Source of the DNA: an uncultured bacterium
GTDB taxonomy: Bacteria > Omnitrophota > Gorgyraeia > Zapsychrales > Aceulaceae
Direction: 5' to 3'
NCBI GenBank assembly: GCA_937930175.1
Contig: CALGLP010000012.1
Coordinates: 1,130-65,129 of the forward strand
Length of the DNA: 64,000 nt
The notes under the pieces are model-generated. The model saw only the letters and a list, made by a program, of their open reading frames with translations. It did not search any database and was not told the origin of the DNA. Below are positions 5,904 through 62,292 of the stretch, in pieces. A program made the position numbers and the translations under genes. Position 1 is the first letter of the stretch. The number at the start of each line of letters is the position of its first letter.

Positions 5904-5916
5904 TACATTTTCTTTT

Positions 5917-8900
5917 CTAACTTCCAACTTCTAATTTCTCTTCTTCTCCAAGCCCAAGCAACCCCATAAAATCTGTGACCGGAACAATGTTAATAATTAC
6001 TGGAATCAGACCTTTAATCTCTTGAAGATTCTCAAAACTCATATTTTGTGGCATCGCAAAATCGATTGCCTGACCTTGCGTTACAAGATTGATATTATCA
6101 GATTTAAAGTCGATGCCGCCGGGTCCGCTTGTAGCTTGCGAACCTTTTCCGCTCCCTGAGGGAGAGATCGTATCCGCAAGAGCGTTCCTTCTTTTTGTTG
6201 TCAAATATCGGCCAAAAAAATCTAACACCTGGTCAGAAATATCAGAAGGAAGCATTGTGTTTTTTATTACCTTGCCAACTTCTTTCGAAGCTTTCACCGC
6301 CATCTCTTCATCCCCCACAGTGCGAGAGTTGAATTTCCCATCCTCTGCAACCTTGGCCTGTCCATCGTCCTTCTTTTTAAACATATTCGATACGATCCCT
6401 TTGCCTTTCACAAACAACCCCCTGCCGCGATCCTTAAGACTTACGGTAAAATCTTGTTTTTCGATTTGATCCCATTTTCCCTCTGAAGCCAAACGCAAAG
6501 CAGTCATCTGTTCATTCGTTTTGTCAGGAAATTTATACCCCAACTTAGAAAATATTAATCCAGGAATCTCCATCTGGTCAACAGCCCGTATAATATAACC
6601 TACTTTCTTAAAGAATGTAGCCTCAAGAATTCTACCATCTGGGATTTGTGGCAACTGTCCAGGATGCAAAGCCATATAGCATAACCACTGCGCCAATTCA
6701 TGCATCCGCTTGCTTTTCCCAGCCAGGCCTTTTTCCCAAAGAGCCTTAAGTGTCAATGAAAATTCATCTGCTCCAAAATCCTCAGCTGACAACTCAGGAT
6801 TTAACACAAAATCATCCTGATCGATCGTTTCTTCTTCTAGAACAAACATCTTCTCATTGACCACGGCGTCCCGCCCCCCTGCAACAGACTCAAGGTCAGC
6901 ACGCGTCACCACCGCATCATTACGCCCCATGGAACCCAAGTCTAAAAAGACCAGCTCCAGCGAACCATCGTCACGTTTGTTGATCCAAATATTTCCGCCA
7001 TGCGGGTCCGCATGAAAGAACCCATCGACAAACATCTCTTCCATCAATTCGCCAAAGATCTTTTTCTTAAGCTGTCTGATCTCGTCCTTGGTCAACCCCA
7101 GCTCATCTTCAAGACGGCTATCTTCGTTTAACGGGACACCATGCATTTCTTCCTCAAAGATCGCCTGCCCGCGTAATGACTCAGGAAGCAGCTCATCGAG
7201 CTCCGTATAATTTTCTGCAGACCTCAAGAAAATCCGATGTGAACCGACAAAGAGCTCTTCAGTCCTGTTTGCCAAAATTTCCCTGTAACGCTTCTGATTG
7301 GCTCTTTCCACATAAAAATCGACCTCTTCCCTGAGATAAGAAGCCACCTGCTTTCCCATGTTTTTCGGGATATTCAAGCCCGACCGGCCAAGCGCATCCA
7401 AGATTTTCTCAAGAGTTTCTAGCTCCACATCAAGCACCTTGTCAATATGGGGCCGCTTAATCTTCATGACCACTCTTTTTCCGTCTGCCAGAACAACTCT
7501 ATAAACCAGCTTAATAGACGCACTGCCTAAACTGCTGCCCACATAAGCAAAATGTTTTCCAAAATCATCCCCTAACGCCAGACGCAAAAGCTGAAAAACA
7601 AACCGTTTGCCAAACGGATCTGCAGACGAAGATAGCTCCTGCAAAGCCTTCTTGACCAGAGAGTCAAGCCGGATGTCCGAATGACTGATGATCTGCGCCA
7701 GCTTGATGCCCACTAGGCCCATGGACTCAAAGAACGTCTTGATCAATTCAGGCACAGAGGATGTTCCATCGCTTTTCATCTTACCGGCCAAAGCACTGAT
7801 CACCTCAAGCGTCTTGTCCTCATCCAAATGTTGAAAAACAGTCCTGAAAATCTTCTTAAGACTTTTACGGTCGGCCATGCCTGCCGGCACACTTTTTTCA
7901 AACACAACATTTAGGAAGTGCGCCATACGCTCCGGATCACGCATGAGACCCTTCTTGCCGCCAAACAAAGATTCCATCAGGTCTTTTTTAGCGTTGGTGC
8001 CTATCGAGGAATACTTCGTCGAACCAAGCTCGGAGAAAATCTCTTTAAGATAACCCAAATCCGTGTGAGAAAAGAACTCGATCTCCATAACGGCAACGGG
8101 TTTTTCTTTTCTCAAGCCCATGATCCACAACGCAAACTCTTCCTTATCTAGGTTACTGGCTTTCTGAATGGTCTCGCGGATTTTGTTCTCAGCCGTGATC
8201 TTATTCTTAACCTTATCCTTAATCGCGTTTTCTTGTAAAAGCAACAAATGCTCTCGAACATCCTTATCTTCCTCTGGGATTCCCGCGCGCTCCATGATCT
8301 CCAGAAGAATATCATCCCGCGTAAAACTAAAGTCTGTAAAATATTGAAAAACTAGATCCATCTCCTGTTCAAAGGTCAACGACTGGCCCTCCTCCTTCTC
8401 CTTGATGCCCAGGGCAAGTTCCAGAGCTCGCAGACGAAACTTATCCCTGAAAAAATCCCGATACATAAGCGCCGAAAGCTGTTCCATCGCGCGTAATTTA
8501 TCGGATGCAGAAAGGCTAGCTTCCTGAAACGCCGATTCAGCCGCAGCGACCAAGAATTCATCCCGCACATAAGATGGCCGGGCAAAATATTCCTGCGTCT
8601 CACGCGCCAAGGCTTCCCAAGCCCTGCCTGCGCTCTGGGCTTTCTTCAAAATCATGTCCCGATATGGATATGCGGTCACAAGGTCGATCTGGGAATGAAT
8701 ATTCCCCTCCTCATTGAACTCGGCCTTGATACGTCCCCTGCTAAGACGGCCTGCCAGGGAGAGAAAAACAAAAAGCAAAGACCGGAAGGTCTGACTTAAA
8801 CGAAGAGGAGCGTATAATTCTTTCATTAATCTGAATTTCGTGCTGATGTCCATAAGCCGTTCCAACTCCTTGACCGGCAGGTCTGGCAAATGAAAAGGAC

Positions 8901-11900
8901 TTCCATACTTAGTTAAAGGAGACTCAGCAAACACGCTTCCTCCAAGTACCGATAGAAAAGGCAATATTTTCATAGCTCCCGGAATCTTTTCCAAATGCAG
9001 GATCGAATAGATTCTCAACCAGAATTTGTTCAGCAAATAAAATGAGCCGAACAAACAAGTAAAAAGAATCGGATCAAACATAACCTTAAATCTAGCCAAC
9101 CTGTTCCTTGCTTTATGACTTAGTCTCTTGGAAAAAGAGCTGAACAGAGTATACTCTTCAATCATCTCTTTTTCTTGGTGATTCACGGCCGCATTGCTAT
9201 CCGCGATCCATGCTGATATCAAGCCTGAAGTCACTCCGTTGATCTGCTTCATAAATCTGTCTTCTATCATCAAAGGCGCAATACTGCGCACAGCCGCCTG
9301 AAGCTCTTGATTATTGGCCAATTGTTTATTACTAAAACCACTCAAAACACGATCGAGATCATAAAATCGAGTCCACTTCTTCTGCCCCCGGATCCCCAGC
9401 GCAGAAGCAAGATGCTTGTCCCACAGAACATAATAAAGAAAAAGATCCCGAAAAGCAGATGACGGCATATAGTCTTTGGCAAAGGCTACCCAATGATCAA
9501 AGTCATACTGCGGGTTATCCTGGACAAAACTAAAGATCTTGAGCAGTCGTTTACGTTCAACGCTCGAAAAATGCAGGCGGTCCGTAGAATTTGTGCCTGA
9601 AATCAACCCCGCAAGAACAGCATGAACAGGAACGTTGCCCCTCCTTCTTAACAAGTCTTGAATCCACATTGTCCACAAAGTAAAATCAGGAACACGCGGA
9701 GGAGGGCGATAAAGCTTACTTGGAAATTCTCCGATTAATATCTGATAAGGATTATCCAGATCAGCTTGAACCGAAGAAACTGAAGAATTTTCTTCTGAAT
9801 AGAACCATGTGTTTTTATTCGAGTTTTTATTATGGGGGTGTTTGTATTTTTCCTGGGGATTTTGGGATCGGATCAGAAATGAAGCATTTTGACCCAGTGA
9901 TAGGTCAAAGTTAAATTTTTTATGGATCACATAATAACTTAACGGCACCAGATATTCCGACCATGTCATGGGGGTCAGAAAATACTTCTGAGCAAATCGC
10001 CGCTTTGTCTGAAGGGGCGTAAGAGCGTTAAGATAGGTAAACAAACCTTCAAGATCTTCAGCTGACAATCCAGAAATGGCATCGTCCAGCTGATCATAAA
10101 ATGTATCCATGGAAACAAACCCTCCCAGCCCAAAAAGATACATCCACTGCCTGATCTGCTGATTAAGATGGGAGACGCCTACAATAAAATCCTCACCCAG
10201 TCCCAGTTCCAGAGCCTGCGCCACAATAAACTTATTCGCATGCTCCATAATCTCCGCTGTTGCCGCTTCCTCCAGGATGCGTTCAGTATACTGAAAAAAT
10301 AAATTACTCAGAGTAGCAGGGTCATTATACGGATCCGTGATCGTAAACTCTTGTTGTCGTTCAGGCCTCTCATTCAATGCCTTGAACAGCGATTCGCTGT
10401 ACTTTAATTTCTCAACAGGTGTTGTAAAACCAAAATGCCCTTCAATGAACCCCAAGATATTCGGATCCTTTTGCAGAAGGACATAAAATTCAAAAAAGAC
10501 CTTTCCGGGATCATTGCCCCAGCGATCAAGAGAAAAATACTCGTTTTGGTCCAGCTTACCACGGGCAAAACCTGAAAGGATCGCCCCCGCGACAGACCGA
10601 CTAACAGCGCCTCTATCCTTTGAGAAAATAAGCATAATATCCTGACGATATCTTGCGTAATTGCTAGGATTAAAGATCAAGAGATCCAAGAAGAAATTCT
10701 GGCAGGACTGACTTTCAGATATCAATTCCGGAAAATTCTTGAACGTCTCAAGCAAAGTTTCCACCAGATCATCCGTAATCAGCTCAGTCTTTGCCTGCAA
10801 TCTGTCAATAATCTGCTCAACCGCAATCACGCCAATGCTATGATACATGACTACATATTTCTGCCAACCAACCTCCTTAGCCAAAAGGATCCTGTTCAAC
10901 AAATGGATGAGTTCCCTGACACTGAACTCATCAGCCCGGGCCTTAATGACGCCTTCGAGATCAAGTAAAAAATCGCTTGTCATCCAGCCTGCGCCCTTAC
11001 GCTGAACATCATGAGGAAATCTTTCGCGTTGCATCATAATGCCCTGACGTCTGCGACCTTCCTCGTCCTGGTGGATCAGGTCAAAGCGCCAGACAGATCC
11101 CAAGAGAGGATGATCAAAAACCCGGGCAAGATCTTCCTTAGGAAGCTTTTTGATTGAATCTATCAAAAACTTCTTCTCCGCCCCATGATCCAAGCCCTGC
11201 ACCTGCACAGGCATTGATTCCACTTCCCCGAAGAATGCGCGCATAGCGACCTTGCTGTAAAACGTTTGAATGCCATCTTCTGCCCGCGTCTCTTCTGCTT
11301 TGAGCGCCTCTAAGCGCTCTGCGGCCGCTTGGCCCAATTGTTTCAATTCTCGGTTCAATCCCATGTCTTGATATATCTGTTCAAAAACCTTTTTAATCTG
11401 AGGCGCAAAGGGTGCAATTTCTTTTTCAAGCTGAGGTAAAAGATCTTCTGTTAAAGGCTTTAATATGGTGCGAACCTCATCACTGCCTCTTTCTAAATAA
11501 GAACTGTTTGAAACAACGGGTTTGCTATAAGAAATTATGTTATCAACTTCGGTTAAACCCCAAGATATTCTATCCCTGACAATCGGGACAGGTCGCCAAT
11601 CCCTGTTATTAAGCAAATATTCAAGGAACCACATCAACAAACGATTATCCACATCAAATCGTTGATCTTGGTCTGCAGTCATATCCCTACTTTCTATAAT
11701 ACTCTGCCCTATCCTTAAGGAGTGATCCTTCTTGTACCCCATCGATAAAACAAAGCCATATTCCTGACTAGAAATACTCATGGGAAATAAGCCACGATTT
11801 AGTTTCTTAGACGCCATAGCATTTCTTAATCGCCACCAATTCCTTTTTTGAGGACGACCTCTTGAGTCTGGACGATCCAATCCCTGGCGCAATATTTCAG

Positions 11901-14900
11901 ACCGCGCAATCTCCATATAGCGGGTCAAGATCTGACGCAACTCTTCATGCAAACGGGTAAACTCTTTAAGCGCCGCGGAGTCCTTATTTAAATTCTGGTA
12001 TTCACTAACCTGAAATAACAATAGAGAATAAACCCCGTAGGTTGAGGCCATCTCTAGCTCTTTGGGAGTTTTGGCATCACGGATAAGCTCAAGGAGTTGG
12101 GCCGTGGTCCTGACGTTCATAAGCCGTGCGTGATACGTGCGCACCCGTGTACGTTCAAACTGATACGCCTGACCTTCCCAGCGCGTAAATTCCAAAGAAA
12201 AACCTTCAGAGAAAGGCTGGCTGGGCGCACGGTAATGCTTGAAATAATTGGGCTTTACAGCCTTAAGTATATTCCTGATCCTCTCTCCCAACAATGGATG
12301 ATTACCAAAAAAATTCTCCTTACGACCGTCCAGGTCCATGGCTTTTCTCAGCATTTCAAACGGCCTCTGGGCCTTCCCTACGGAATAACCCGCGCCGTCC
12401 ATGATCTCCAAGGCACGGCGATCGGCATCGATCTCATGAACGTAGACATCCACCTCTCCTTGAACATAACCCACGCTCCAATCATAACGGCCCCGCTCCA
12501 TCTTTCGTTTCATCTCGTCCAGCGTTTCGGGTTTGGGCGCTTCTCCCTTGTTGACTTTATCGCGGTCCTGAGTAATATGAGATATTTCATGCGCAAGGAT
12601 AAGCGCTATATGTTCTTTAAAAAACATAAAGAATTTCTCAGGATCCCCCTGACTGCGGCTTTCCTGGATAGCGTAAAAAAACTCCCACAGAAGCCCGATA
12701 TTAAGAACAATATGATTCGAGAAAGAAACGACAAAAGCATTGGCATCGGAATAATCTGCCAGATGAAAATGAAAGCTCCCCGGATCGTAGCCGGCACTCA
12801 CAAGAAGATTGTCGAATATTTCACGTAGTTCGCTGTAAACAGTCCTAAGCTCATCATCCCCATGACTGATGAGGCGGTATTCTTCTCTCGCATATTCAAT
12901 AAAAACATCCGCCGAATGCTGACTCACGTTATAACGCGCAGTCTCAGCGCGACGCTTCCATGTTTTAAGGGCGCTTTGGACATCTCCTTCGCCGCCCATG
13001 ACCTGAAAAACCGTATCCACCGGCGTTTCCCCGGATCTGTCCGCCGCATGAAGAAGGGTATCAAAAAACAGGGCCGCAAACAGCGAGGGGTCCATCCTGA
13101 CTGACAGAACATATTCGTTGATCCCGAAATATCCAGAACCACTTTCATAATTCATCATATACTTGGACGACCACTTGTCTTCTTCTCTCGGGACTACGCC
13201 GATCACAAGCCCGCCTTTGTCACCGGCCGCCTTGATCTGGCGGTGAAAAATCTCTTGATCTGCTGGAGAAAGCCGCTGATACCACTCTCCCAGAAGGGAC
13301 TGCCATTGATCCCGCGTCACACCACTATCGATCAAGTGGTGATCAATGGTGATGATTGTGCCGTCAAGCTCAAGCTGAACATTCCCCGTGCGACCAAGGG
13401 TCTCTCCCCGATAACGATCGACCTTTTTTGCTTCAAAATCCCTAGAATACCGCATGGCCTCAAATGTCGGCAGGCTTTGCCAGGACGTATTCTGCGCCTG
13501 ATCAGGTTCCCGCGCCTTCACGGGCGTGGAATTTCCTGTCTCAAGCGCTATTGGCGCTGATTGCTGTTCAAAGATTTCATTGCTGGAACTGGCTCTCGTC
13601 TCTATAGATTGATCAGTGACCGGAATATCCGACGACGCTACCCGCGGATTTTGGAAAAAGGGTGCCTCTGTTGATGTGCTTGTCCATTCTGGCGCTCTAG
13701 CTTGAACGGAGATTTCGTAGACTGTTTTCTGAGCTCCAGATTTTCTTATATAATTAATAAAAATATGACTTGGCTCTTGGCTTTCATGAAATGACGTATT
13801 TAGGTTCATGACCGTTACCCCTCCCGCAAAGTATTTCCGGGGGATGTTCTTTTTGGTGTAAGGATCATACTCCACCTTCATCATATTGCAGACGCCTTTT
13901 TTAAAGGTTTGGAGGTATTGTTGGTAAATGATTTGAACAGTATCTGGTGAAGAGTGAATAGTATCTAGAGAAGAATTATTCTGAGTTTGTGAAGGGTATC
14001 TGGTATCTAGTATCCGGTGCTTTTCTTCGCCATTTTCTAACGACTCTTCATTGCTTTTTTGGCTAGATACTAGATACTTTTCACTATTCACGACTTCTAG
14101 TCCTTTAACCTTTCTCTTATCCGCATACACCTTATTCAGTATTGAGTTCTTGAGATTCGTCTTATACCAGTAGCTTAAGATAATGCTGTTGTAGATCTGC
14201 CTTAGCTGGGCAAAGTTCTTGCCTTCATTGACTTCTTTTTCCAGGACAGGGATGAAGACCTCACGCACAATACTAGAAGAGATATCAGAAGATGGAGAAT
14301 GGACAATGGAAGATGGAAAAGTCTTAGAATCTAGGGAATCAGGACTTTTATTCGCTGTTGTCTTGTCGTTGTTTTTTCCATCTTCTATCTTCTCCCTTCT
14401 ATCTTCTTTACTTTTCTCTCTTGCTAAATAATCACTTTCCAGCATCACTTTTAATCGCGATTCAACGACAAAGGCCTTATCCTCTTGAACGTAGACTTCA
14501 GCCTTATCGGGCATGATCCAGACCTTGTTAAAGGTGTCGACAGGAACGTTCGTTGTCCCGAATTTCTCATAGGATTGCTTGTAAATCTTTTGCCAGAATT
14601 CTTTACCAAGATCACTATCAGGATTGGTTAAAGAGGCAGTTATTTGCTTTAAGAGATAGTCTTGGGCAAGCATATCAATACCCATCTCGGTAGTCCCAAG
14701 CTCTGCTGGAACGATGCGGTCTTTTTCATAGGGAGAAAGGTTGACCCAGAGATCATTCTCTGGAAGAGTAAGACTTGCCAGGAAGTAGCGGATAAGCTTT
14801 TCGCTTTCGCTCTTTAACTCATCCCCTTGAAGCCCGGAATCACCAGAATCGACAATAAAGTCGAACTTCAGGGGATTGTCAGGGTAGACACGTATTCCAC

Positions 14901-15081
14901 GAACCAGGGTAGGTGTGAAAGCCGGGCTTAAGGGGATGAGGGTATTACTAATAGCTGGTGCCAGGGTTTGAGACAAGGCTTCTTGAGGGGCGACACTCAT
15001 CAGCCCAAAAGAGAGTAAAAGACATAAAACAACCACCTTGTATAAAATAGAATTCTTATAAGTTCTTATATCATTTATCAT
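5917..15081 (-). CDS. Giant secreted multidomain protein A (3054 aa): signal peptide, family-specific N-domain, M48-type Zn-peptidase domain, UbiB/ABC1-type kinase domain, conserved C-terminal motif
   Basis: Single 9165-nt ORF. The N-terminus is hydrophobic (ILYKVVVLCLLLSFGLMSVA). The first roughly 420 aa are paralogous to the N-termini of the ORFs at 36386-42052 and 56961-62225 (shared FDFIVDSGD, YFLASLT, WVNLSPYEKDRI, VDTFNKVWIMP, LKVMLE, LEKEVNEGK, CNMMKVEYDPY). An M48 signature is present (ILAHEISHITQ ... EIDADRRALEIMDGAGY). UbiB kinase motifs are present (GIKLAQIISHSD..., VVMKIKRP, FHADPHGGNIW). The C-terminus GGIDF...IPVIINIVPVTDFMGLLGLGEEEKLEVGS is shared with the other giant ORFs. Confidence 0.8.
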   Translation of the reverse strand: MINDIRTYKNSILYKVVVLCLLLSFGLMSVAPQEALSQTLAPAISNTLIPLSPAFTPTLVRGIRVYPDNPLKFDFIVDSGDSGLQGDELKSESEKLIRYFLASLTLPENDLWVNLSPYEKDRIVPAELGTTEMGIDMLAQDYLLKQITASLTNPDSDLGKEFWQKIYKQSYEKFGTTNVPVDTFNKVWIMPDKAEVYVQEDKAFVVESRLKVMLESDYLAREKSKEDRREKIEDGKNNDKTTANKSPDSLDSKTFPSSIVHSPSSDISSSIVREVFIPVLEKEVNEGKNFAQLRQIYNSIILSYWYKTNLKNSILNKVYADKRKVKGLEVVNSEKYLVSSQKSNEESLENGEEKHRILDTRYPSQTQNNSSLDTIHSSPDTVQIIYQQYLQTFKKGVCNMMKVEYDPYTKKNIPRKYFAGGVTVMNLNTSFHESQEPSHIFINYIRKSGAQKTVYEISVQARAPEWTSTSTEAPFFQNPRVASSDIPVTDQSIETRASSSNEIFEQQSAPIALETGNSTPVKAREPDQAQNTSWQSLPTFEAMRYSRDFEAKKVDRYRGETLGRTGNVQLELDGTIITIDHHLIDSGVTRDQWQSLLGEWYQRLSPADQEIFHRQIKAAGDKGGLVIGVVPREEDKWSSKYMMNYESGSGYFGINEYVLSVRMDPSLFAALFFDTLLHAADRSGETPVDTVFQVMGGEGDVQSALKTWKRRAETARYNVSQHSADVFIEYAREEYRLISHGDDELRTVYSELREIFDNLLVSAGYDPGSFHFHLADYSDANAFVVSFSNHIVLNIGLLWEFFYAIQESRSQGDPEKFFMFFKEHIALILAHEISHITQDRDKVNKGEAPKPETLDEMKRKMERGRYDWSVGYVQGEVDVYVHEIDADRRALEIMDGAGYSVGKAQRPFEMLRKAMDLDGRKENFFGNHPLLGERIRNILKAVKPNYFKHYRAPSQPFSEGFSLEFTRWEGQAYQFERTRVRTYHARLMNVRTTAQLLELIRDAKTPKELEMASTYGVYSLLLFQVSEYQNLNKDSAALKEFTRLHEELRQILTRYMEIARSEILRQGLDRPDSRGRPQKRNWWRLRNAMASKKLNRGLFPMSISSQEYGFVLSMGYKKDHSLRIGQSIIESRDMTADQDQRFDVDNRLLMWFLEYLLNNRDWRPVPIVRDRISWGLTEVDNIISYSKPVVSNSSYLERGSDEVRTILKPLTEDLLPQLEKEIAPFAPQIKKVFEQIYQDMGLNRELKQLGQAAAERLEALKAEETRAEDGIQTFYSKVAMRAFFGEVESMPVQVQGLDHGAEKKFLIDSIKKLPKEDLARVFDHPLLGSVWRFDLIHQDEEGRRRQGIMMQRERFPHDVQRKGAGWMTSDFLLDLEGVIKARADEFSVRELIHLLNRILLAKEVGWQKYVVMYHSIGVIAVEQIIDRLQAKTELITDDLVETLLETFKNFPELISESQSCQNFFLDLLIFNPSNYARYRQDIMLIFSKDRGAVSRSVAGAILSGFARGKLDQNEYFSLDRWGNDPGKVFFEFYVLLQKDPNILGFIEGHFGFTTPVEKLKYSESLFKALNERPERQQEFTITDPYNDPATLSNLFFQYTERILEEAATAEIMEHANKFIVAQALELGLGEDFIVGVSHLNQQIRQWMYLFGLGGFVSMDTFYDQLDDAISGLSAEDLEGLFTYLNALTPLQTKRRFAQKYFLTPMTWSEYLVPLSYYVIHKKFNFDLSLGQNASFLIRSQNPQEKYKHPHNKNSNKNTWFYSEENSSVSSVQADLDNPYQILIGEFPSKLYRPPPRVPDFTLWTMWIQDLLRRRGNVPVHAVLAGLISGTNSTDRLHFSSVERKRLLKIFSFVQDNPQYDFDHWVAFAKDYMPSSAFRDLFLYYVLWDKHLASALGIRGQKKWTRFYDLDRVLSGFSNKQLANNQELQAAVRSIAPLMIEDRFMKQINGVTSGLISAWIADSNAAVNHQEKEMIEEYTLFSSFSKRLSHKARNRLARFKVMFDPILFTCLFGSFYLLNKFWLRIYSILHLEKIPGAMKILPFLSVLGGSVFAESPLTKYGSPFHLPDLPVKELERLMDISTKFRLMKELYAPLRLSQTFRSLLFVFLSLAGRLSRGRIKAEFNEEGNIHSQIDLVTAYPYRDMILKKAQSAGRAWEALARETQEYFARPSYVRDEFLVAAAESAFQEASLSASDKLRAMEQLSALMYRDFFRDKFRLRALELALGIKEKEEGQSLTFEQEMDLVFQYFTDFSFTRDDILLEIMERAGIPEEDKDVREHLLLLQENAIKDKVKNKITAENKIRETIQKASNLDKEEFALWIMGLRKEKPVAVMEIEFFSHTDLGYLKEIFSELGSTKYSSIGTNAKKDLMESLFGGKKGLMRDPERMAHFLNVVFEKSVPAGMADRKSLKKIFRTVFQHLDEDKTLEVISALAGKMKSDGTSSVPELIKTFFESMGLVGIKLAQIISHSDIRLDSLVKKALQELSSSADPFGKRFVFQLLRLALGDDFGKHFAYVGSSLGSASIKLVYRVVLADGKRVVMKIKRPHIDKVLDVELETLEKILDALGRSGLNIPKNMGKQVASYLREEVDFYVERANQKRYREILANRTEELFVGSHRIFLRSAENYTELDELLPESLRGQAIFEEEMHGVPLNEDSRLEDELGLTKDEIRQLKKKIFGELMEEMFVDGFFHADPHGGNIWINKRDDGSLELVFLDLGSMGRNDAVVTRADLESVAGGRDAVVNEKMFVLEEETIDQDDFVLNPELSAEDFGADEFSLTLKALWEKGLAGKSKRMHELAQWLCYMALHPGQLPQIPDGRILEATFFKKVGYIIRAVDQMEIPGLIFSKLGYKFPDKTNEQMTALRLASEGKWDQIEKQDFTVSLKDRGRGLFVKGKGIVSNMFKKKDDGQAKVAEDGKFNSRTVGDEEMAVKASKEVGKVIKNTMLPSDISDQVLDFFGRYLTTKRRNALADTISPSGSGKGSQATSGPGGIDFKSDNINLVTQGQAIDFAMPQNMSFENLQEIKGLIPVIINIVPVTDFMGLLGLGEEEKLEVGS
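13949..14093. repeat. In-frame palindromic insertion (hairpin-forming) within giant gene A, insertion 2
   Basis: The arms gtgaatagtatctag ... ctagatacttttcactattcac form an imperfect inverted repeat. The segment encodes a low-complexity stretch (NSEESLENGEEKH...SSLDTIHSSPD) that is absent from paralog B at the equivalent position. Confidence 0.45.
14273..14425. repeat. In-frame palindromic insertion within giant gene A, insertion 1 (tagaag-type)
   Basis: The arms agaagatggagaatggacaatggaagatggaaaag ... cttttttccatcttctatcttctcccttctatcttc form an inverted repeat. It encodes EDRREKIEDGKNN...SSIVHSPSSDISSS between the conserved LKVMLESDYLA and IVREVFIP blocks, and paralog B has only a short linker there. 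Confidence 0.5.
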
Positions 15082-36385: not shown

Positions 36386-39300
36386 TCACCCCTTGACCAC
36401 CTCAGCCACCGCAGGCTCCTGTGGTATGTCAAATCCAAGTTGCAACGGCAGATTAATGGGCGTCATCTCAAGGATGATAGGCCTCAAGATATCAATATAA
36501 ATGCTCTCCATATCCTGAAATGGCACCGCGAGCGGCACGCCCTGATCATCGGTCTTGATATTTAACTCTTTATACAATTGAGTCAAGTCCACGCCACCGG
36601 TAGGAGCCGAAGAAACTGAAAAATCAAAAAGTCCTAAAGAAGTAACAAGATCCCACATAAACTGAGAATCTTCAGAGCTTTCGTTCTTAACCATTCCTGC
36701 AAAAATCCTATAATCTTTATCAACGGAAAGGATTAACGCAAACCTTATATTAGTAAACTGTTGCGTATATGCTCTTAAATTATTCCCAAAAGTTTTATGA
36801 CTCTCCGTTGATATATTGCCTTTGACAATAACAGGAACAATAATCTTTGCCTTATTCCCGTCCCTGGCACCTTGGCTGATCTTCCGAAGCTTAGCTTCAA
36901 CCTCCTTTTGCCAAGCCCGCATCTGCCAGTCATCTTTAAAAACTTCCGGATCAATGGTAATGGCTTCTTCAAATAAATCACCATGTTCTTCTTTAAGAGT
37001 TTCTGCAAAACGTGAAGGATCAGGATGCAGAACACAAGCGCTCTGCAAAGAATTTGGATCCTTTACAAGCAAATCATATACTTGCTGAGCAGCCTGTTTT
37101 CTGGCTTTAGTCTTTTTATCATCAACAGCTGTTTCGCGAAGATTGATCAAGGAACGGATAAATTCAGCCGGTACTCCGCCTAAGGCCATAAACTCGCTGG
37201 CCAGAACAACAAAGCGGTCAAAAGAAAACTCCTTTGTGCTATAACGACTATCTTTCTTGTTTAAATCCCTATAAAAATTAACAGTAAAAGAATTTTCCGA
37301 AGGCTTCGCTAAAGCCCAGGACAAGAGATCTTGAATAACTGTCCTTTTGTCACGCAGCAAATCACCATGCATCTCTTTGTCAACGTCCATCATTTTATCC
37401 TTAAGCTCATTAAGCCTGGGGATCAGTTCATCCGTTAGACCTAAGCCTTGTAGCTGCGCTTTGGCAAATCTGACAAAATCGTCCTCGCCAATACCGGAAT
37501 GAGTGCTTTCTGCCAAATCCCGCACCAAGGCTCTGGCCGCAAAGGCATCCAGACGAAGAAGAGCATCCATAAAGTATAAAAAGTTGTCTTCAGTGAATCG
37601 ATACCGATCAACCCCCCCGTTATTAGGACTAAAAATAATATCCTTTGATGTCAGGGCATCTTCAGGCGGCAGATCTCTCGAAAGCACTTCCTTGGCATAT
37701 CTTGCTAAAATCGGCAAAAGACGCTTATCCGTCTTGATCAGGCTGATCAACCTAGTATCAACTATGAACTTCTTATACCGACCGTCTTCATCCTTATTCC
37801 CGCGAAGAATGAGATCCAGATTGGGCCACGTTACCAAAGCATCACCCTGCTCATTAATCGACTTACGCGCATTTGTAGCTGATGAACTGGCCGTGAACTT
37901 GACAACCCAGTCACCACGCATGCTAGATGGCTTAGTCAACGTAACCTTGCCTTCAGAATACTGATAGGTGATGGTGAAAATGTCAGTACAACTCCCGCGA
38001 AAGCTAGGGCCTTCAAAAGTACCCCCTAATTTTGTTATAATAATTGGATTTCCTATATACCTGCCAATCTTATTTAAAACCTGTGTATTGATTACATCGG
38101 GAGTTTCAAACGATCCCGGAAGCTTAAAACTCTCAGCTTTTTCTTTAATACTCGAACTAACAACAGTCGTAACCTTCCAATCCCCTGATTTCTGCGCTGT
38201 AATCGTTCTCTGAGCGTTTTTTAAACCTCGCTGATAAACGACGACCTTGCCCACTAAAATATCGGTCTTTATTGTTTTCCAGCCATTATAGGCATACTCT
38301 TCTGAAATCAGGCGCGCTACCTTTTCCTCGGATAGAACTCTCGAATAGGTCTTAAGCCCAGAGCTGATCTTTTCTGGCGCTGAAACGGCAACAGCAGGAG
38401 CAAATCCATTTTTTGCTAATTCTTTGAGTATGACTTGCCTGATCCATGACGGTTCATCCAGGCCGCGATACTCTGGCGATGACTCAAGAGCGCGATTGAC
38501 GTTTTCGGCGATCTTAAAAGCCATGTCAAAACTGCCTAGAGATTCTTTCGCCTTGCCGTAGAGGTCCTGAAAAGTCACCTCGCGGCCAAAAAGATCTGAA
38601 AGGATCTTCAAGGCATCCTCACCGTTATACGCTTTGGTCATTGACTCAGAAGAAAATCGGTTGACAGAAAATTTTCTTGATCTGACAAGCGACAGGATGC
38701 CTAAGATCGACCAGATTTGACCATCAGCCTCAGGGTCTAAATCCTTGCCCATCAACACCAGAAGCTCATCTCGTGTAAGGGAAAAACCAGGACGAATAAA
38801 TTTAGGATTTGAATCCTTAGAAGCACGATTACGCAAACTCAATCCCAGAGAATCCCTAATCCACTCCTCATAAGACTCTTTATATACTTTTCCATCCGGT
38901 CTAATGTAGACATGCAGGGATTTTAATTCTTGCATCTTGCCTGTGCGATCAACATAGAACCAGGGAGCTGCTTGCTCGCGAAAACGAAACTCGCCAGGAT
39001 AATCACTTTCGATCACAACATTCTCGCCAATTTCAACCCCGCTAAGGTCGACACGGCCACGGATCACGCCAGAAAAAGAGGTTTCACGAAAAGTGATAGA
39101 ACTCTTACTCCTTATGAAATCTATGCTAGGAATCGACACCCTTGGACCCCTTTGCTTCCTTGCTTTTTCTTTTTTCTTATCCGCATTGGTTGAGGTGCCA
39201 AATTCTTCAGATGAATTATCCAAGGTGGTGGTCAACAAATACCACTCCTCATGCTCCCGGAACACAAGATAGGTCAATTGACCGTCCTGAACACCGATCC

Positions 39301-41917
39301 GTGTTTGATCGCTAGAGATCCGGATTTGCGCAGGAAGAATCTTAAATTTTCTCGAAAGAAATACGACCACGGCGAAAACATCTTTTCCCGATAACTCAGA
39401 AACCTCAAATGGTCCCGAAATCACCTGCGCTTTCGGCTCTGTATCGCGCAGCACAGAGGGAACGCTCGGAGACGCCTTGGCCTGCTGAAACGGAATCGGA
39501 GCTCCAAAAGAATCCTTATAAGAAACGACAACAAATCGTGGACCTGCCATCTCCACACCCATAACGGAACTATCTTGGAACGTGATCCATAATCCAGGGA
39601 TCTCGACAGGAAGAGGTTTATTTTCAGAGAAAATTTCCAAGACTTTATAAGGCGAAAGACTCATAGGAAAAATACCCTTAGGTCTTTTATTTACTGCCTC
39701 TGCAATAATCGCCGCCACTTTTTCAGGCGTGAGAGTAAGCGATAAATAAGGAATCTTTGCCGACTCTGTCGGCAGAACAGGCGTTGTTTGATTCGTGGGA
39801 CTTGGTGACTGGGTAAAATCAACATCCTGATTATTCTTGTCGACAACGCCTGAGATCTTCCAACTATTCTTAGAAAAATCCCTTGTAATCAAAATCTTCA
39901 AATCACCATACATCAAGGTAATGGAAACAATTTCTTCCAGCTTGTGAGCACGAGGATCATACTCTTCCAAGAAGAAATTTCCATGAGGAACGTTACGCAC
40001 CACAAACGTCTTTTCAGGGTTTCCATACCCTAAAGCTTCATTTATCTGCGCGGTAATCTCTTCAACAGAAAGCTTGGCGTCTAAATGCGGGATCTTGATA
40101 TTGGAAGATGTCTTGACGACTACTGCTGGACGGGCTGGTCGCTGTGGTAAATGATTAATTTCTACAACTTTCCATTGCGTATTGTCTTCATTTAAACTTT
40201 TTACTTTAACATAACTCGATCCGCCAAAATGGATCTCAACATAAATAATGTCATCGCTGCCATCAACCTCCATCCACATGCTTTCTATTGATTTCCATTC
40301 AGCCCACTCAAGATCCCTTTGTTCACCATCTGAAAAATACACAACTACTTTATCAATCATGCGTCCAGCGTATGTCTTCCACACATCATTTAGCATGGTC
40401 TCGCCAGACCCATTAATAATTTGATTGATCGCTAAACCAGACGATATACGTTTTTTACTCTTAAACGTATACACAACCCACTGGTCGGTGAGATTCTTTA
40501 ACTCTTTATAAGATCCACGCGGGGCAACGGCAACAACGCGGAAGTTACCGGAAATTATTTCGACTGGGCTTAGCGGCGCATTACCGGTCGTAATTTTAGC
40601 TTTTTTGCGATCAATGCTTTGATTATACTTTTTTAGAAGATACTTCCTAATTCGGTCTTGCTTCCATACTTTCGCGCCTTTCTCATCAATAAAATACCGC
40701 TTCTTTCTTTCCCATGGCGAGGTCGATCTTTGGCGAGGCTTAATCCGAGACTTTTTGTTAGACAGGACTGAGCTTATTTTAATATTGCCGCCTCCCTTGC
40801 CAACAATCGTTTCTATTTGACCAGACGTTGGAAAATTGGTCTGCGTTAAATTAATCTCAACCAATGGAATACCCCCGGAGAAATATTTTCGGGCAACATT
40901 ACGCTTGGCTTGAGCGTCGTACTCTGCACGGATCAAATTATACGCCCCTTGTTTGTAAGCAGTTAAATACGAATCATAAATCTTTTGCTTCACAGCCTTA
41001 TCCGTCAAATCAATACCGTTTATTTTGGATTTGTTGACATAGGCTTGACCTAAAAGACTATCTTTTAAATTCTTCTTAAACCATGTTCCTAAGATAAGGG
41101 CATTATAGGCCTGACGCAAGGCGGCAAAATGTTTTCCATTATTCACTTCTTTTTCAAGTTCGGGGATCACAATGTCGCGGACGATTTGGGAGGCAAGTTC
41201 TTGGCTCTTGGCTCTTGGCTCATTGGTTTTGCTATCAGCTATGAGCGATGAGCTCTGAGCTTTTTGCAGCGCGAGGTAATCCTCTTCCAGCATCACCTTT
41301 AAGGACGCCTCGGCCACAAAGGCCATGTTGCCATAGCGATACACAACCGCCTTGTCCGGCATGATCCATACCTTATTAAAAGTATCAACCGGGATCTGCG
41401 TGGTTTGATAGGTTTCATAGGCCTTTTTGTAAACCTTATCCCAAAACTTTTTTCCAAGATCGTTTTCAGGATGGATCATCGATGCGGTAAATTGTTTTAA
41501 GACATAGTCCTGCGCGAGCAAATCGCGGCCCAAATCCGTTTGTGCCAAGGCATCAGGAATGATCCGGTCTTTTTCATACGGAGAGAGATTGACCCACAAG
41601 TCTTTTTCAGGGATCGTCAGAGACGCCAAGAAATATTTGATCATCTTCTCCGATTCCTTCTTTAAAGCCTCGCCTTGAAGATTATCATCGCCATCATTCA
41701 CAATAAAATCAAACTGAAACGGGCTATCCGAGTGGACCTCAACACCTGTCATCATGGCCGGATGAAAGACTGGAGTTGGCGCAAGCAGAGTGCCAGGTGC
41801 GGGCAAGTTGAGCGCTTGAGCAAATCCAGAGGATGGCAAAATAAGATTGACAACAAAACAAACACAGACAAGGCAACGAATCGCCTTTGAGGACCAGTTT
41901 TTTCTAAATGTAAACAT
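36386..41917 (-). CDS. Giant secreted protein B (about 1843 aa from internal Met; ORF-track version 1888 aa to 42052) with family N-domain and C-terminal motif
   Basis: The internal Met at 41917 gives a good signal peptide (MFTFRKNWSSKAIRCLVCVCFVVNLILPSSGFAQA). Conserved N-domain blocks are present (FDFIVNDGDD, YFLASLT, WVNLSPYEKDRI, VDTFNKVWIMPDKA, LKVMLEEDYLA, LEKEVNNGK). The C-terminus is GGVDL...PIILEMTPINLPLQLG. No enzyme motif was recognised in the central 1400 aa. Confidence 0.7.
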   Translation of the reverse strand: MFTFRKNWSSKAIRCLVCVCFVVNLILPSSGFAQALNLPAPGTLLAPTPVFHPAMMTGVEVHSDSPFQFDFIVNDGDDNLQGEALKKESEKMIKYFLASLTIPEKDLWVNLSPYEKDRIIPDALAQTDLGRDLLAQDYVLKQFTASMIHPENDLGKKFWDKVYKKAYETYQTTQIPVDTFNKVWIMPDKAVVYRYGNMAFVAEASLKVMLEEDYLALQKAQSSSLIADSKTNEPRAKSQELASQIVRDIVIPELEKEVNNGKHFAALRQAYNALILGTWFKKNLKDSLLGQAYVNKSKINGIDLTDKAVKQKIYDSYLTAYKQGAYNLIRAEYDAQAKRNVARKYFSGGIPLVEINLTQTNFPTSGQIETIVGKGGGNIKISSVLSNKKSRIKPRQRSTSPWERKKRYFIDEKGAKVWKQDRIRKYLLKKYNQSIDRKKAKITTGNAPLSPVEIISGNFRVVAVAPRGSYKELKNLTDQWVVYTFKSKKRISSGLAINQIINGSGETMLNDVWKTYAGRMIDKVVVYFSDGEQRDLEWAEWKSIESMWMEVDGSDDIIYVEIHFGGSSYVKVKSLNEDNTQWKVVEINHLPQRPARPAVVVKTSSNIKIPHLDAKLSVEEITAQINEALGYGNPEKTFVVRNVPHGNFFLEEYDPRAHKLEEIVSITLMYGDLKILITRDFSKNSWKISGVVDKNNQDVDFTQSPSPTNQTTPVLPTESAKIPYLSLTLTPEKVAAIIAEAVNKRPKGIFPMSLSPYKVLEIFSENKPLPVEIPGLWITFQDSSVMGVEMAGPRFVVVSYKDSFGAPIPFQQAKASPSVPSVLRDTEPKAQVISGPFEVSELSGKDVFAVVVFLSRKFKILPAQIRISSDQTRIGVQDGQLTYLVFREHEEWYLLTTTLDNSSEEFGTSTNADKKKEKARKQRGPRVSIPSIDFIRSKSSITFRETSFSGVIRGRVDLSGVEIGENVVIESDYPGEFRFREQAAPWFYVDRTGKMQELKSLHVYIRPDGKVYKESYEEWIRDSLGLSLRNRASKDSNPKFIRPGFSLTRDELLVLMGKDLDPEADGQIWSILGILSLVRSRKFSVNRFSSESMTKAYNGEDALKILSDLFGREVTFQDLYGKAKESLGSFDMAFKIAENVNRALESSPEYRGLDEPSWIRQVILKELAKNGFAPAVAVSAPEKISSGLKTYSRVLSEEKVARLISEEYAYNGWKTIKTDILVGKVVVYQRGLKNAQRTITAQKSGDWKVTTVVSSSIKEKAESFKLPGSFETPDVINTQVLNKIGRYIGNPIIITKLGGTFEGPSFRGSCTDIFTITYQYSEGKVTLTKPSSMRGDWVVKFTASSSATNARKSINEQGDALVTWPNLDLILRGNKDEDGRYKKFIVDTRLISLIKTDKRLLPILARYAKEVLSRDLPPEDALTSKDIIFSPNNGGVDRYRFTEDNFLYFMDALLRLDAFAARALVRDLAESTHSGIGEDDFVRFAKAQLQGLGLTDELIPRLNELKDKMMDVDKEMHGDLLRDKRTVIQDLLSWALAKPSENSFTVNFYRDLNKKDSRYSTKEFSFDRFVVLASEFMALGGVPAEFIRSLINLRETAVDDKKTKARKQAAQQVYDLLVKDPNSLQSACVLHPDPSRFAETLKEEHGDLFEEAITIDPEVFKDDWQMRAWQKEVEAKLRKISQGARDGNKAKIIVPVIVKGNISTESHKTFGNNLRAYTQQFTNIRFALILSVDKDYRIFAGMVKNESSEDSQFMWDLVTSLGLFDFSVSSAPTGGVDLTQLYKELNIKTDDQGVPLAVPFQDMESIYIDILRPIILEMTPINLPLQLGFDIPQEPAVAEVVKG

Positions 41918-42182
41918 TATGTGGTATTTCCGTTTCTCCGTGGCGTGAGAAAAAGGTGGAGCCCAACAACTAAAGTCATCCGCCCTTCTAAGAAAAGGGC
42001 GAACATCCGCCGAAGCACCAATTACACCATTTTCGTATTCCTCCACGGACAAGCCCGTGGTATCCTGCGTAGGCGGATGGAGCTAAGATTTTAGCTTCAG
42101 GTTTTTTAAAAATATATTTTTTGTTGACTTTGTAAAAGGATAGCACTGGATTAAAGCTTTGACAAGGGCGCGAGGGACAATG

Positions 42183-56180: not shown

Positions 56181-56198
56181 AAATTTTAAATTCTTTAA

Positions 56199-56346
56199 AG
56201 AAAATAGAAATTAGAAGATGGAAGATAGAAAATGATCTTAGAACGCGGTAGCTACTTCGTGTTAAAATCAAAGAAGATCAAGGATGCTTTTCTATTTTTT
56301 CTTTTTCTAACTTCTAATTTCCAACTTCTATCTTCTAATTTCTTTA
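56199..56346. repeat. Intergenic palindromic 'tagaag' element between the rubredoxin and flavodiiron genes
   Basis: The arms agaaaatagaaattagaagatggaagatagaaaa (56199-56232) and ttttctattttttctttttctaacttctaatttccaacttctatcttctaatttct (56290-56345) are mutually complementary. An inner gatctt...aagatc hairpin is nested inside. The element is non-coding here. Confidence 0.55.
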
Positions 56347-56348
56347 TT

Positions 56349-56960: not shown

Positions 56961-59900
56961 TTACAACTTGCTCAGCTCCAGACCTTCTGCCTCCTCTTCG
57001 AATACACCTAAAAGAAGGGGCAGGTTCGTCACCGGTGCGACATTGATGATGACAGGATAGAGTCCGTCGACCTGAAGATCCTCAAAATCTTGATTGTTGA
57101 GATCAAATGGGATCGCACTACTCCCCTCTCCCTTGCGCTCAATATTTAGATTCGCCAGATTAAAATCCACACCGCCCTTGATCTTAACTGAAGAAAGTGC
57201 CTCATCTGTGATGGTGCCTTGCTCTAGCCCTGTGGTGACACCCTTAAGATTTTCTTCTAAATCACTATATGAGGTGAACCCCAAAGCATTCGCCATCATT
57301 ACCTTCTTGAATCCTGATAGCTCTTCGCCAGTAAGCTCAAGATAATTCAGAATGACATCCCAAACCGCTTTTTTTGATTTCACCGTCAAATATTTAAGAG
57401 GAATATCCTGCGAAAATGTTACCTCGCCAGGAGATTCATCCTTGCGAAAGCCCGCCTCTTCAAGTTCTTTCTTAGCAAAAATAAGATTAATGCCGCCAAA
57501 ACTGTTGAGAAGGCGCACCCGCGCCATCTGTCCCTGACCCCCAGAGTTAACAAAAATCTTGTCTTTTGACCCTAAAAGCTTTCCTTGGCTTTCAAAAATG
57601 ATCTTATATAAAGCTTCCGACGTTGTAACATGGCCCCAAGCCTCTTCAATACCCGAATAATTCTCAGCCATCCATCCATTAACATCAAAAAACGTCCTAT
57701 AATTTCTTTGTGCAATCTTCTTAAGCGCTACATCTTTTTCTATACCTGGCTGAAGCCTGTCCATTTTATCAATAGCTAATTCTACGGATAACGACTTCTC
57801 AGAAGGAATGTGGGAAGCATTAGCAACAATCCAAGCTCTTGCCGAAACGATGAATTTAAGGGCCTCTTCTGCGCCCATTTGCTTAACAAGACTATTTTCA
57901 ATTTCATATCGAATATCATCCCAAGTAGCATTTGCAAATACATCATCCACTCCCTCCACCCCAAAATCTTTTTTAACTGCCTCGGGTAGGTCGCCTTCTG
58001 CCAGCTCCTCTTTTTCCTTTCCAGCGCTTGCGCCATCATAGCGCAAATATTTCACAGCCCCTGATTTATCAAGAAGCATGACATAAAGTTTTTTCTCAAA
58101 AACTGTAAAATTTACTACGCCGACAAGAAGATAGGGTTTTCGTCCATCAGATAAGGACAGCGTCCCTGGAGCGTCTTCGCGGCCAGCAGGAAAGATCTGA
58201 ATCCCAGGTAAAATAGCGGGATTTGAATCGATATACTCCATTTTTTCTTCGATGGAAAGATACTCTGCCCTGGTAATATTCGCGCGAGGAGCATTAGTAA
58301 AGATTTGCAGAATCCGTGCGTTGATCTGATACCACTCCATCGGCACAAGAGGCGAATTGGCTTTGGCCGCGCCAGATGATGGCAAAGGCTTCTTGGTATC
58401 AACAGGCTTAGAGGGACTTTCCTTCTTTATTTCCCCGCCATATCCAAGCATATGTATGGCATAATAGGCTTCTGGAAAAACATAGTTCATGGCTTCAAAC
58501 CCTACGGGAGGCACAAATTTATTATTTCGCTGAAATTGTGGCCAATGGGTATCAACAATATACGGCATGCCAGCGCCACCCACGTCCACGTAAACCTTCA
58601 AAACTGCATGGGGCACAGCTTGTTTATTGCCGGAATCTTGAAAATCAAAGGGAACGGAAAAATCTTTCTTCTCAAGATCCCAATTGCCGCGGTTTCCGCC
58701 GAGGATATCAAAAAGATCATTGCGAGCAATCTGGCAATTCCTGTCCAAATCATTGCGATGTTTTCTGGCAAGGCCCATAGCCATATCACGCAAAACCGGC
58801 AAGGTCAAGGTAGAACTGACGACCTTCTGCTTCAGTAGTTCATTCTTAAAATTTAAAGTATAAAAAAGAAAATCACGCTTGGCCTCCTGCTTCTCACGAA
58901 TGAGCGGCATGCCATTCTTGAATCCGCCTGAGAACTCAACGGGATAGGCCCCCAGAAACTCAACGGCGCGAATCATGTTCATGTCATCTGTCTCTACCGG
59001 TAAAGCGCTCAACCCTTGAGAAAGCTTACTGTAAAACATAAAACCTTCAACCTTGTTCAAAATATTTTCTTTTTTAAATCCTGCCTTCTCCATTTGCTGG
59101 AGAATAAGAGCCTTCATGAATAAAACATACGAACCTGTCTCAGTCGTGTCGATAAAGCGGATCCCTTTATCTTCGATTTCCTGCCAAGAAATATTAAGCG
59201 TCTCAAAATATTTTGAGAATCCTTCTGCTGCCTTCTGAATACCTGCTTGGTGCTCATTAATCAATTTCGTACGCGGTGATTCGAGGATGCGGCCTTCCGT
59301 GAATGCATTAAAGATAGCAAAGAATTCTTCCTCAAACTTCGCAAATCTATCCTCGGGAACACGGTCCCTCTCCTTCAGATCCATCCGCAGTTTTGCCTCA
59401 GTAATCAGGTAATGAATCGCGCTGGGAAGGGTGTTGGTTTTTTGTCCTCCGGCAAGACTCTCAAAAACCTTGTTGGAGGCAAAAAAACCTTTTTTCTCTT
59501 TTTCCCCTGCCAAATACAGCAAAGCCTCATCTCGAAAGAAATAAATATTATACGCATCGGTGTTTGCAGATTTTCTCTGAATAAAGCGGGTAAAGTTAGA
59601 AGCCGTCTTTGCGGTGTCCCTTATAGTTTCCAAATCATGCCACGCTGGAATCTTCGAAATCCCCATGGCATCCGCAATTTCTTTCATTTCAGCGTCGGTT
59701 ACTGGCCTGTCAATGGTGGCAGAAATGGCATCAACCCATGCGACAAAATCAGAAAACTGATCTCCGATAGGATCTTGATAAAGCTTTCTTATTTTTTCAA
59801 CAAGCGTCGAGGCGGAGGAATTGGTTGTGCCAGGCTGGTCTGCGGGCGCAGCTTGCGCTTGTTCTTCTTCGATGAATTCCTTCACATTCTCTAAAACGAC

Positions 59901-62290: not shown

Positions 62291-62292
62291 TT

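Follow-up and report, generated by a model that had tools for sequence, protein, structure and literature searches.

Heptamer-built palindromes translated in frame within the loops of giant Omnitrophota proteins, probably small mobile repeats

The 64,000-nt stretch of DNA analysed here in full (the window; contig CALGLP010000012.1) comes from an uncultured Omnitrophota bacterium and carries three related genes, all on the minus strand. Gene A (5917..15081; open reading frame (ORF) list, Pfam, NCBIfam) encodes a protein of 3054 aa comprising an N-domain (aa ~40-430), an M48 peptidase-like region, an ABC1/UbiB-type kinase and a C-terminal GGIDF...PVIINxxPV domain. Paralog B (36386..42052; 1888 aa) has an N-domain with the family-typical linker 2 of 10 aa, and paralog C (56961..62225; 1754 aa) an N-domain with both loops filled and a GGIDF-type C-terminus. 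Our subject is two segments within the N-domain of gene A, A_L1 in linker 1 (14273..14425, minus strand, aa ~220-270) and A_L2 in linker 2 (13949..14093, minus strand, aa ~330-383), both of them palindromic elements translated in frame, the former as ...KEDRREKIEDGKNN...SSIVHSPSSDISSS and the latter as ...SEKYLVSSQKSNEESLENGEEKH...SSLDTIHSSPDTV. A first reading of the sequence (the original prediction) had described them as hairpin-forming inverted repeats that lie between conserved blocks and are translated in frame into these peptides, and had likened them to Rickettsia palindromic elements (RPE); both the translation and the position between conserved blocks agree with our translation and alignment.

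A_L1 is an imperfect inverted repeat consisting of a purine-rich heptamer array (AGAAGAT type), a loop of ~53 nt and a complementary pyrimidine array, with 34-nt arms at 14287-14320 and 14374-14407 that are 74% complementary, and A_L2 has 22-nt arms (13947-13968 and 14070-14091) that are 91% complementary, plus nested pairs. Folding of the whole segments as single-stranded DNA gives stabilities just moderately above those of dinucleotide shuffles (z -2.65 and -2.27 for the two gene A segments). Because a purine-rich stretch followed by a pyrimidine-rich one raises chance complementarity, an arm-wise null was used, in which the left arm is compared with the reverse complement of the right arm over 1000 shuffles within each arm that keep its composition. 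Against this arm null the complementarity reaches z 8.8 for A_L2 and z 6.4 for A_L1, with 0/1000 shuffles attaining either value, which bears out the hairpin-forming character of both segments. Their building blocks, originally given as tagaag/ggaga-type units, are tandem heptamers of two different types, AGAAGWT-type in A_L1 and GTATCTR / GTGAAGA with their complements in A_L2; since these unit words differ, A_L1 and A_L2 represent separate element families.

In an alignment of the 120 best N-domain homologues together with A, B and C, both segments fall at positions where the family is usually short. Linker 2 (KRKVKGL to IYQQYL) is exactly 10 aa long in ~100/120 homologues (~84%) and 17-63 aa in a minority, as against 56 aa in A (an excess of 46 aa over the 10-aa norm) and 45 aa in C, while linker 1 (SDYLA to IVREVF) is mostly 29 aa (range 17-89) and measures 50 aa in A and 46 aa in C. 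Insertions of at least 8 aa in the 123 sequences fall almost only at linkers 1 and 2, with one minor third site. Since the linkers of relatives are mostly 10 aa and 29 aa, A and C carry insertions in comparison with the family core, as had been proposed for A from the shortness of B; C proves to be filled as well. The segments are thus far from universal among relatives: linker 2 is short in most of them, and the loops of close relatives differ or are empty.

The long loops are also the ones that fold. Among both loops of 16 family genes with available DNA (18 long, 11 short), the long ones have a median fold z of -3.1 versus +0.2 for the short ones (Mann-Whitney p 1.9e-5), and a control of sixty 150-nt segments drawn at random from genes A and C has a median z of -0.19 (p 6.9e-9 versus the long loops). 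An AlphaFold2 model of aa 1-440 of gene A (49 aligned sequences, mean predicted local distance difference test score (pLDDT) 73.7, predicted template modelling score 0.67, confident core) renders linker 2 (aa 322-376) as coil (pLDDT 36-40), flanked by helices 314-321 and 379-395, and the centre of linker 1 (aa 238-262) as coil with pLDDT ~45-52 between helices 215-237 and 263-286. Both inserts are therefore predicted, in line with the proposal that they sit in surface loops, as low-confidence coil between helices, and the model fits permissive, probably exposed loops.

Period 7 dominates the short repeats of the window, with 15 arrays versus 0-2 for each of periods 4-13 (Tandem Repeats Finder and an offset-match scan), and it is also dominant in 189 kb of other Omnitrophota DNA. 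Period 7 is by itself not unusual, because among long simple repeats of prokaryotes the heptamer is the most frequent unit, an abundance attributed to slippage (PMC4679880); the distinctive traits are the inverted pairing of arrays, typically a purine-rich array, a spacer and a complementary pyrimidine-rich array, and their translation in frame. A protein heptad of coiled-coil type was ruled out as the source of the periodicity, the DNA period being 7 nt and not only 21 nt, and non-coding copies being stop-rich. The degenerate three-unit motif of A_L1 type, AGAAGWTRGAAGWTRGAA, with up to 3 mismatches allowed, has 33 matches in the window versus 0.93 expected, and these occupy seven places, coding and non-coding: clusters at 5915-5939, 14287-14407, 56199-56343, 61041-61165, 61353-61456 and 62291-62315, and a stray single site at 21462. 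Further copies do therefore exist, in the window and, as related elements, in other Omnitrophota. A collection-wide scan with AGAAGWTRGAAGWTRGAA returned, among the matches listed, mostly unrelated purine-rich coding repeats of other phyla, together with two Omnitrophota loci. The left half of 62095-62270 is built of GAGTAGA units, and there are several element families with one shared architecture.

Both loops of paralog C carry AGAAGWT-type palindromes translated in frame. C_L1, in linker 1 (61340..61470, minus strand), has 40-nt arms at 61353-61392 and 61417-61456 that are 78% complementary (arm null z 6.4), and C_L2, in linker 2 (61030..61180, minus strand), has arrays at 61045-61073 and 61120-61171 (arm null z 3.0). 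A non-coding copy of the same family as A_L1, recognised by its arms and motif matches, is found at 56197..56348 (strand not assigned); its arms (56201-56231 and 56318-56348) are 84% complementary (arm null z 5.5), and it takes up nearly all of the 168-nt spacer between a rubredoxin gene (56349-56510, minus strand, 53 aa; ORFs, Pfam) and a flavodiiron-type gene (55002-56180, minus strand; ODP/metallo-beta-lactamase and flavodoxin domains, Pfam), and is thus intercistronic. The two genes likely form an oxygen or nitric-oxide detoxification operon. Terminator and promoter scans around the non-coding copies gave no terminator, and no terminator-like site at 56197-56348; Rfam and tRNA scans gave no known RNA family and no tRNA. 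A role of the non-coding copies as intrinsic terminators was ruled out, given that there is no G+C-rich stem with a T-run and that 56197-56348 separates two cistrons of an apparent single operon.

Of the two non-coding palindromes originally placed at 56199-56346 and 62098-62290, the first is accordingly genuine and the second is composite and partly coding. The composite region (62095..62325, strand not assigned; arm null z 5.0) lies between ORF 62293-63981 and gene C and has three components: a GAGTAGA-type purine array (62102-62143) that falls within the opening ~41 codons of gene C, then complementary arrays of CTCTATCTA/TCTACTC (62226-62271), then an array of AGAAGTT type (62283-62320). 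The ATG called as the start of gene C (62225), together with the ~41 codons that it opens (...FLLSTFYSLLSTHS...), is inside the GAGTAGA-type palindrome, at 62102-62225, and by eye no alternative ATG, GTG or TTG was noticed ahead of the signal-peptide-like segment of gene C, whose N-terminus may be element-derived or mis-called. At the end of gene A, a solo AGAAGTT-type array (5915..5942, minus strand) supplies the final residues (…EEEKLEVGS) and the TAG stop. The ending ...GLLGLGE(E/K)EKLEVGS* is common to gene A and ORF 62293-63981, the tail and the TAG stop coming from a GTTAGAA array (62293-62320 in the ORF), and the 62095-62325 region scores 32 against the 3' end of gene A; the ends of both genes appear to be set by the repeat.

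A third type of in-frame element (62395..62580, minus strand; AGGGGCAAAGG... / ...CCTCTAGCCCT) occupies the GGIDF-domain loop of ORF 62293-63981, which in protein alignment is ~35 aa longer than in A and C. It encodes the peptide VKGVEGQRGQGIKDSEKFQESS...NLFILNSSSP, contains an inverted repeat (62410-62430 / 62527-62547) and is related at the DNA level to the loop elements of P0001, P0003 and P0054, genes of the same family (scores 14.5-34, null ~8 +/- 1). At least five copies in the window, in A, C and ORF 62293-63981, are thus translated in frame. Linker 1 of paralog B (41193..41264, minus strand) is short (28 aa, a normal length for this loop) and without an AGAAGWT-type element; it holds two adjacent direct arrays, TCTTGGC x4 and GCTATGA x4, which are not complementary to each other and score 6-10 against the other copies, and this suggests that heptamer slippage is active there even without a palindrome.

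Because three heptamers make 21 nt, an array can be translated as a 7-residue repeat in any frame, the purine arm reading as an E/D/R/K/G-rich and the pyrimidine arm as an S/P/L/T-rich peptide. A perfect array of TAG- or TAA-bearing heptamers, on the other hand, has a stop in every frame within 21 nt, and only a heptamer with an in-frame TAG or TAA would need to differ for the array to be read through. In the purine arms of A_L1, C_L1 and C_L2, GAG is found at 4/4 in-frame junctions and TAG is kept at 7/12 out-of-frame junctions. The out-of-frame stops of the coding copies amount to 3.06 per 100 nt per frame, compared with 2.49 and 4.48 in two non-coding copies and a gene background of 2.2. 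The coding copies look like the non-coding element changed only where the frame requires, although this editing of junctions is descriptive and not independent proof, because an intact ORF necessarily has no in-frame stops.

An inherited linker would predict similarity between paralogs at the same site. What is observed is similarity across sites and across genomes, which indicates that the inserts are copied DNA. A_L2 and C_L2, at the same site of two paralogs, score 8 against each other, at noise level, whereas C_L1 and C_L2, at different sites of one gene, score 34.5 over the arms and part of the loop, and A_L1 and C_L2, at different sites of different genes, score 35 with a nearly identical left arm. 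A_L1 scores 27.5 against C_L1 and 44, end to end and including the loop, against the insert of P0004 (locus L001 of another genome), a gene that is the positional ortholog of gene B by PFOR-DsbD-Gly-zipper synteny. Altogether, AGAAGWT-type copies have pairwise scores of 27-44 against a noise of 6-12. The second family gives a similar picture, an arm of A_L2 matching the linker 1 insert of L124, in another genome and at another site, at 22/24 nt (score 19, null 7.8 +/- 1.2).

In four family genes of other genomes, both loops hold copies of one genome-specific palindrome. The two loops of L003 are 84% identical over ~140 nt with a perfect core of ~60 nt, those of L138 score 79 across 119 nt and those of L139 score 70.5 across 132 nt; the GGIDF-loop element at 62395-62580 of the window is similar to the L138, L003 and L139 elements. 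In L140, linker 1 holds a classical, non-repetitive hairpin of -49 kcal/mol, of which linker 2 has half a copy (score 24). Other genomes carry this G+C-rich hairpin element too (TTGTCATTCCCGAATGC...GTCGGGAATCC; its peptides include SFPNAFVGNP and IQAFGDD): an L140-type element lies at the third, minor insertion site of the N-domain in L128 (380-480), and another lies in frame in L126 (14880-14990), in one open frame with the N-domain and ~4.9 kb downstream of it. GGIDF-domain loop elements are also present in L124, L135 and L126, and at L080 an unrelated Omnitrophota ORF of 1943 aa has nine period-7 arrays in 8 kb, in inverted pairs and all in frame.

Close orthologs show how fast the loops change. 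P0004 (filled) and P0008 have cores that are 93% identical, and their DNA is ~85-90% identical as far as the boundaries at DYLA and I(V/I)RE, between which 120-135 nt are unalignable. Relatives of P0011 at 88-90% core identity have clean short loops, and comparison of P0011 with P0106 (90%) delimits a hairpin element of ~84 nt within a native linker of 23 aa. P0001, the closest full-length relative of gene A at 85% core identity, has both sites filled by a different element family. The loop content of close orthologs looks replaced wholesale rather than simply interrupted.

Taken together, the copy distribution and the cross-site similarity support the RPE-like mobile-element reading put forward originally, and we consider it probable that the segments are small non-autonomous hairpin-forming repeats that have been copied to new places, much as MITEs (transposable elements of the miniature inverted-repeat kind), repetitive extragenic palindromic (REP) sequences and RPE are. 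Such an element would be ~100-150 bp long and consist of two arms of imperfect tandem heptamers that are reverse complements around a variable loop, with several such families coexisting in this Omnitrophota genome. Copying to new sites would resemble that of MITE/REP/RPE-type elements, with ectopic recombination between arrays as a possible route. Copies would persist between genes and, in frame, in a few disordered, permissive loops, namely linkers 1 and 2 of the N-domain and the C-terminal GGIDF-domain loop, of a single multidomain protein family that looks secreted and is specific to the phylum. We infer mobility from the copy distribution only, and statements about the mechanism of movement or about the neutrality or function of the inserted peptides are likewise conditional.

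Several observations weigh against copying as the origin of the segments. Alignment scores in the pairwise DNA comparison matrix (noise ~6-12) are inflated by the low complexity of the arms. At the filled/empty pairs, where the native linker is partly replaced and the flanks were replaced or have diverged, neither target-site duplications nor sharp termini are evident, and no transposase was found by Pfam among the 15 window ORFs scanned. The window copies share arms and mostly not loops, and the arms are only 74-91% complementary, so that the copies would be old or constrained. Heptamer arrays can, moreover, arise by slippage (PMC4679880), as the non-palindromic arrays in linker 1 of paralog B illustrate. 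Finally, in ~74 kb of the genome every copy is in or beside a family gene, and 10 kb of adjacent housekeeping DNA (EF-Ts contigs) has none, a confinement that fits tolerance and also a process specific to the gene family. The sharing of arms alone and the direct arrays of paralog B leave room for local genesis by slippage and template switching, and the confinement to family genes together with the fast and complete turnover of loops leaves room for a selected or targeted process. As to an enzyme, a Y1_Tnp gene (IS200/IS605-type, possibly RAYT-like; L003 1-577) lies ~2 kb upstream of a family gene in another genome, and is the sole candidate mobilising enzyme seen in any locus and only a lead.

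Local genesis would do without movement of any element: heptamer microsatellites would expand by slippage in permissive loops, template switching or fold-back repair would invert them, and the likeness of copies would reflect convergence on slippage-prone purine-rich heptamers together with gene conversion. It would account for the different heptamers of different loci (AGAAGWT, GTATCTR, GAGTAGA, TCTTGGC, GCTATGA), for loops that are mostly unrelated among the window copies, for the direct, non-palindromic arrays of paralog B, for the general abundance of heptamers in prokaryotes, which is attributed to slippage (PMC4679880), and for the tendency of the two loops of one gene to be alike, as short-range conversion would give. 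However, whole elements with non-repetitive cores are common to unrelated sites and genomes (L003, L138, A_L1/P0004 and 62395-62580), the L140 element is a classical non-repetitive hairpin and yet sits in the same loops, and a non-coding copy of the same family exists at 56197-56348. We regard local genesis as unlikely.

A selected feature is slightly less probable. Here the palindromes would be kept as RNA hairpins that pause translation between the folding units of giant secreted proteins or stabilise operon mRNA, as flexible linkers, charged and Ser/Pro-rich, or as recombination-prone cassettes that diversify exposed surface-protein loops, which would suit the refilling of the same three loops across the phylum by unrelated elements, the occurrence of all copies in ~74 kb in or next to family genes, the complete loop turnover at 93% core identity, the intercistronic position of the non-coding copy in an apparent operon, and the signal-peptide-like segments with which the proteins start. 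A linker of 10 aa suffices, however, for the function of most family members (~84% at linker 2), peptide sequence is not conserved from one genome to the next, and the elements have no Rfam match and no terminator-like features, nor is covariation or a conserved RNA structure in evidence. A particular form of this idea, which we find doubtful, is that all three loops (both linkers and that of the GGIDF domain) are dedicated hypervariable cassettes of phylum-wide secreted or surface proteins; if so, the inverted arrays, prone to recombination and slippage, would let the cell swap or resize exposed loops fast, a built-in diversification of surface proteins in host-attached or predatory ultra-small bacteria.

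By far the least probable explanation is chance palindromy of an ancestral low-complexity linker, in which a charged purine-codon stretch is followed by a Ser/Pro-rich pyrimidine-codon stretch; that order raises chance complementarity and would suit whole-segment fold z values of only -2.3 to -2.65. Against it, the arms beat composition-keeping shuffles (z up to 8.8), the period is 7 nt and not 21 nt, non-coding copies are stop-rich, most relatives are without the segments, and A_L2 and C_L2 are unrelated at the same site.

The N-domains of A, B and C (13792-15081, 40700-42052 and 60900-62225) are ~400 aa long with a signal-peptide-like start, and their downstream partners vary (M48 peptidase plus ABC1 kinase, methyltransferases, HAD, kinases, ankyrin). 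A query with the first ~430 aa of gene A returned 1362 homologues, nearly all in Candidatus Omnitrophota/Omnitrophica metagenome-assembled genomes, and the N-domain is thus an Omnitrophota-specific module, phylum-wide and uncharacterised. Scans of the host proteins matched neither the N-domain nor the GGIDF domain to a Pfam or NCBIfam model, and a PDB fold search with the N-domain model gave no match (best E 2.4). The C-terminal 'GGIDF...N.N...GL.PVIINxxPVT...LLG' domain is common to A (5917-6141), C (56961-57170), ORF 62293-63981 (62293-62640) and the giant relatives L124 and L135, and resembles a signal for sorting or anchoring that would pair with the N-domain.

The neighbouring genes are ordinary chromosomal ones (PFOR, NrdD, LpxB, AsmA, BatD, EF-Ts). 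Nearly all ORFs of at least 150 aa in window 1-64000 are on the minus strand and the GC skew is negative throughout (cumulative -4.2), consistent with one replichore and a strong gene-strand bias. Two compact, near-perfect hairpins (42180-42230, with 23-nt arms at 96%, and 43556-43600, with 22-nt arms at 86%) occupy short intergenic gaps by the gene B / Gly-zipper / DsbD / PFOR cluster; these are ordinary terminator-like stem-loops, unlike the heptamer elements. The metagenome contig ENA ERZ724082 NODE_512 is 100% identical to the window across 10.5 kb. Two short-read contigs of the same population, likewise 100% identical (L143 and L144; ENA ERZ724082 and ERZ724084), break inside gene A at window ~13570, just downstream of the N-domain, and these breaks fit assembly collapse at the paralogous N-domains or at the repeats, a practical hazard when such genes are annotated. 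The repeats probably contribute to fragmented assemblies and to mis-annotated starts and ends of Omnitrophota giant genes; arrays encode the gene C start as well as the stop of gene A and that of ORF 62293-63981.

In-frame palindromic elements are an established class (PMC10969869), and in function RPE, like MITEs that form in-frame fusions, are a close parallel. Like RPE, the present elements are hairpin palindromes of ~100-150 bp, found between genes and in frame, with several families per genome and no known transposase or mechanism (PMC10969869), and the added peptide is compatible with the host fold, here by prediction only, as low-pLDDT coil. They differ in their Omnitrophota host and so are not members of an RPE family, a judgement made by taxonomy alone and without sequence comparison to RPE consensus; in having arms of tandem heptamers, which give a frame-independent 7-residue repeat; and in peptides that are not conserved across genomes. 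RPE are moreover reported in many unrelated metabolic genes, whereas the coding copies described here occur in a few loops of one family and in the L080 protein. MITEs (ERIC, Coxiella QMITE1, those of Anabaena) are similarly small and multicopy, with inverted-repeat ends and occasional translational fusions with host ORFs (PMC10969869), and the seven motif sites in the window, with scores of 27-44, represent a comparable multiplicity. The copies here have inverted arms that they share, fuzzy heptamer-array ends and variable loops; no defined terminal inverted repeat or target-site duplication was identified, nor a parent insertion sequence among the 15 window ORFs scanned.

REPs and the REPINs, mobilised by REP-associated tyrosine transposases (RAYT, Y1 transposases), are described as abundant, often intercistronic, hairpin-forming doublets of inverted short repeats (PMC3116915, PMC3337134). 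The intercistronic copy at 56197-56348 and the Y1_Tnp gene near the L003 family gene are reminiscent of them, but REPs are by definition extragenic, G+C-rich and endowed with a conserved core, whereas at least five copies are translated here and the arms are A/G-rich heptamers; no RAYT was found among the 15 window ORFs scanned. With the heptanucleotide repeats of Beggiatoaceae and cyanobacteria (TAACTGA; short tandemly repeated repetitive sequences, STRR) the present arrays share their form, short genome-specific runs of 2-6 imperfect heptamers that are stop-rich in one orientation, and their occasional overlap with ORF ends, those within ORFs being tolerated only in a stop-free reading (PMC4679880). 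The TAACTGA/STRR arrays are, however, direct, overwhelmingly intergenic and located upstream of start codons, with one inverted set among 170 (PMC4679880), whereas here inverted purine/pyrimidine pairs form long hairpins, the majority of those seen falling within ORFs and several being read in frame. PARCELs, finally, are likewise coding repeats with dyad symmetry; they move both inside a genome and from one genome to another and are enriched among proteins of the surface or targeted to the membrane, but they are tandem copies of an amphipathic motif, conserved and 25 residues long, that fill much of the ORF (PMC2996958), in contrast with single loop elements in a conserved globular domain that have no conserved peptide motif.

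No description of such elements in Omnitrophota was found in the literature, two preprints on Omnitrophota giant genes being without mention of them, and two features are without description in the literature searched, namely the heptamer arms and the repeated refilling of the same loops by unrelated genome-specific elements. The first matters because changing a single stop-bearing unit offers a simple route for a stop-rich non-coding repeat into an ORF, and the second provides a natural experiment on insertion-tolerant protein sites and on the origin of disordered segments. In-frame palindromic repeats, best documented in Rickettsia with scattered cases elsewhere, are thus seen here at scale in an uncultured phylum.

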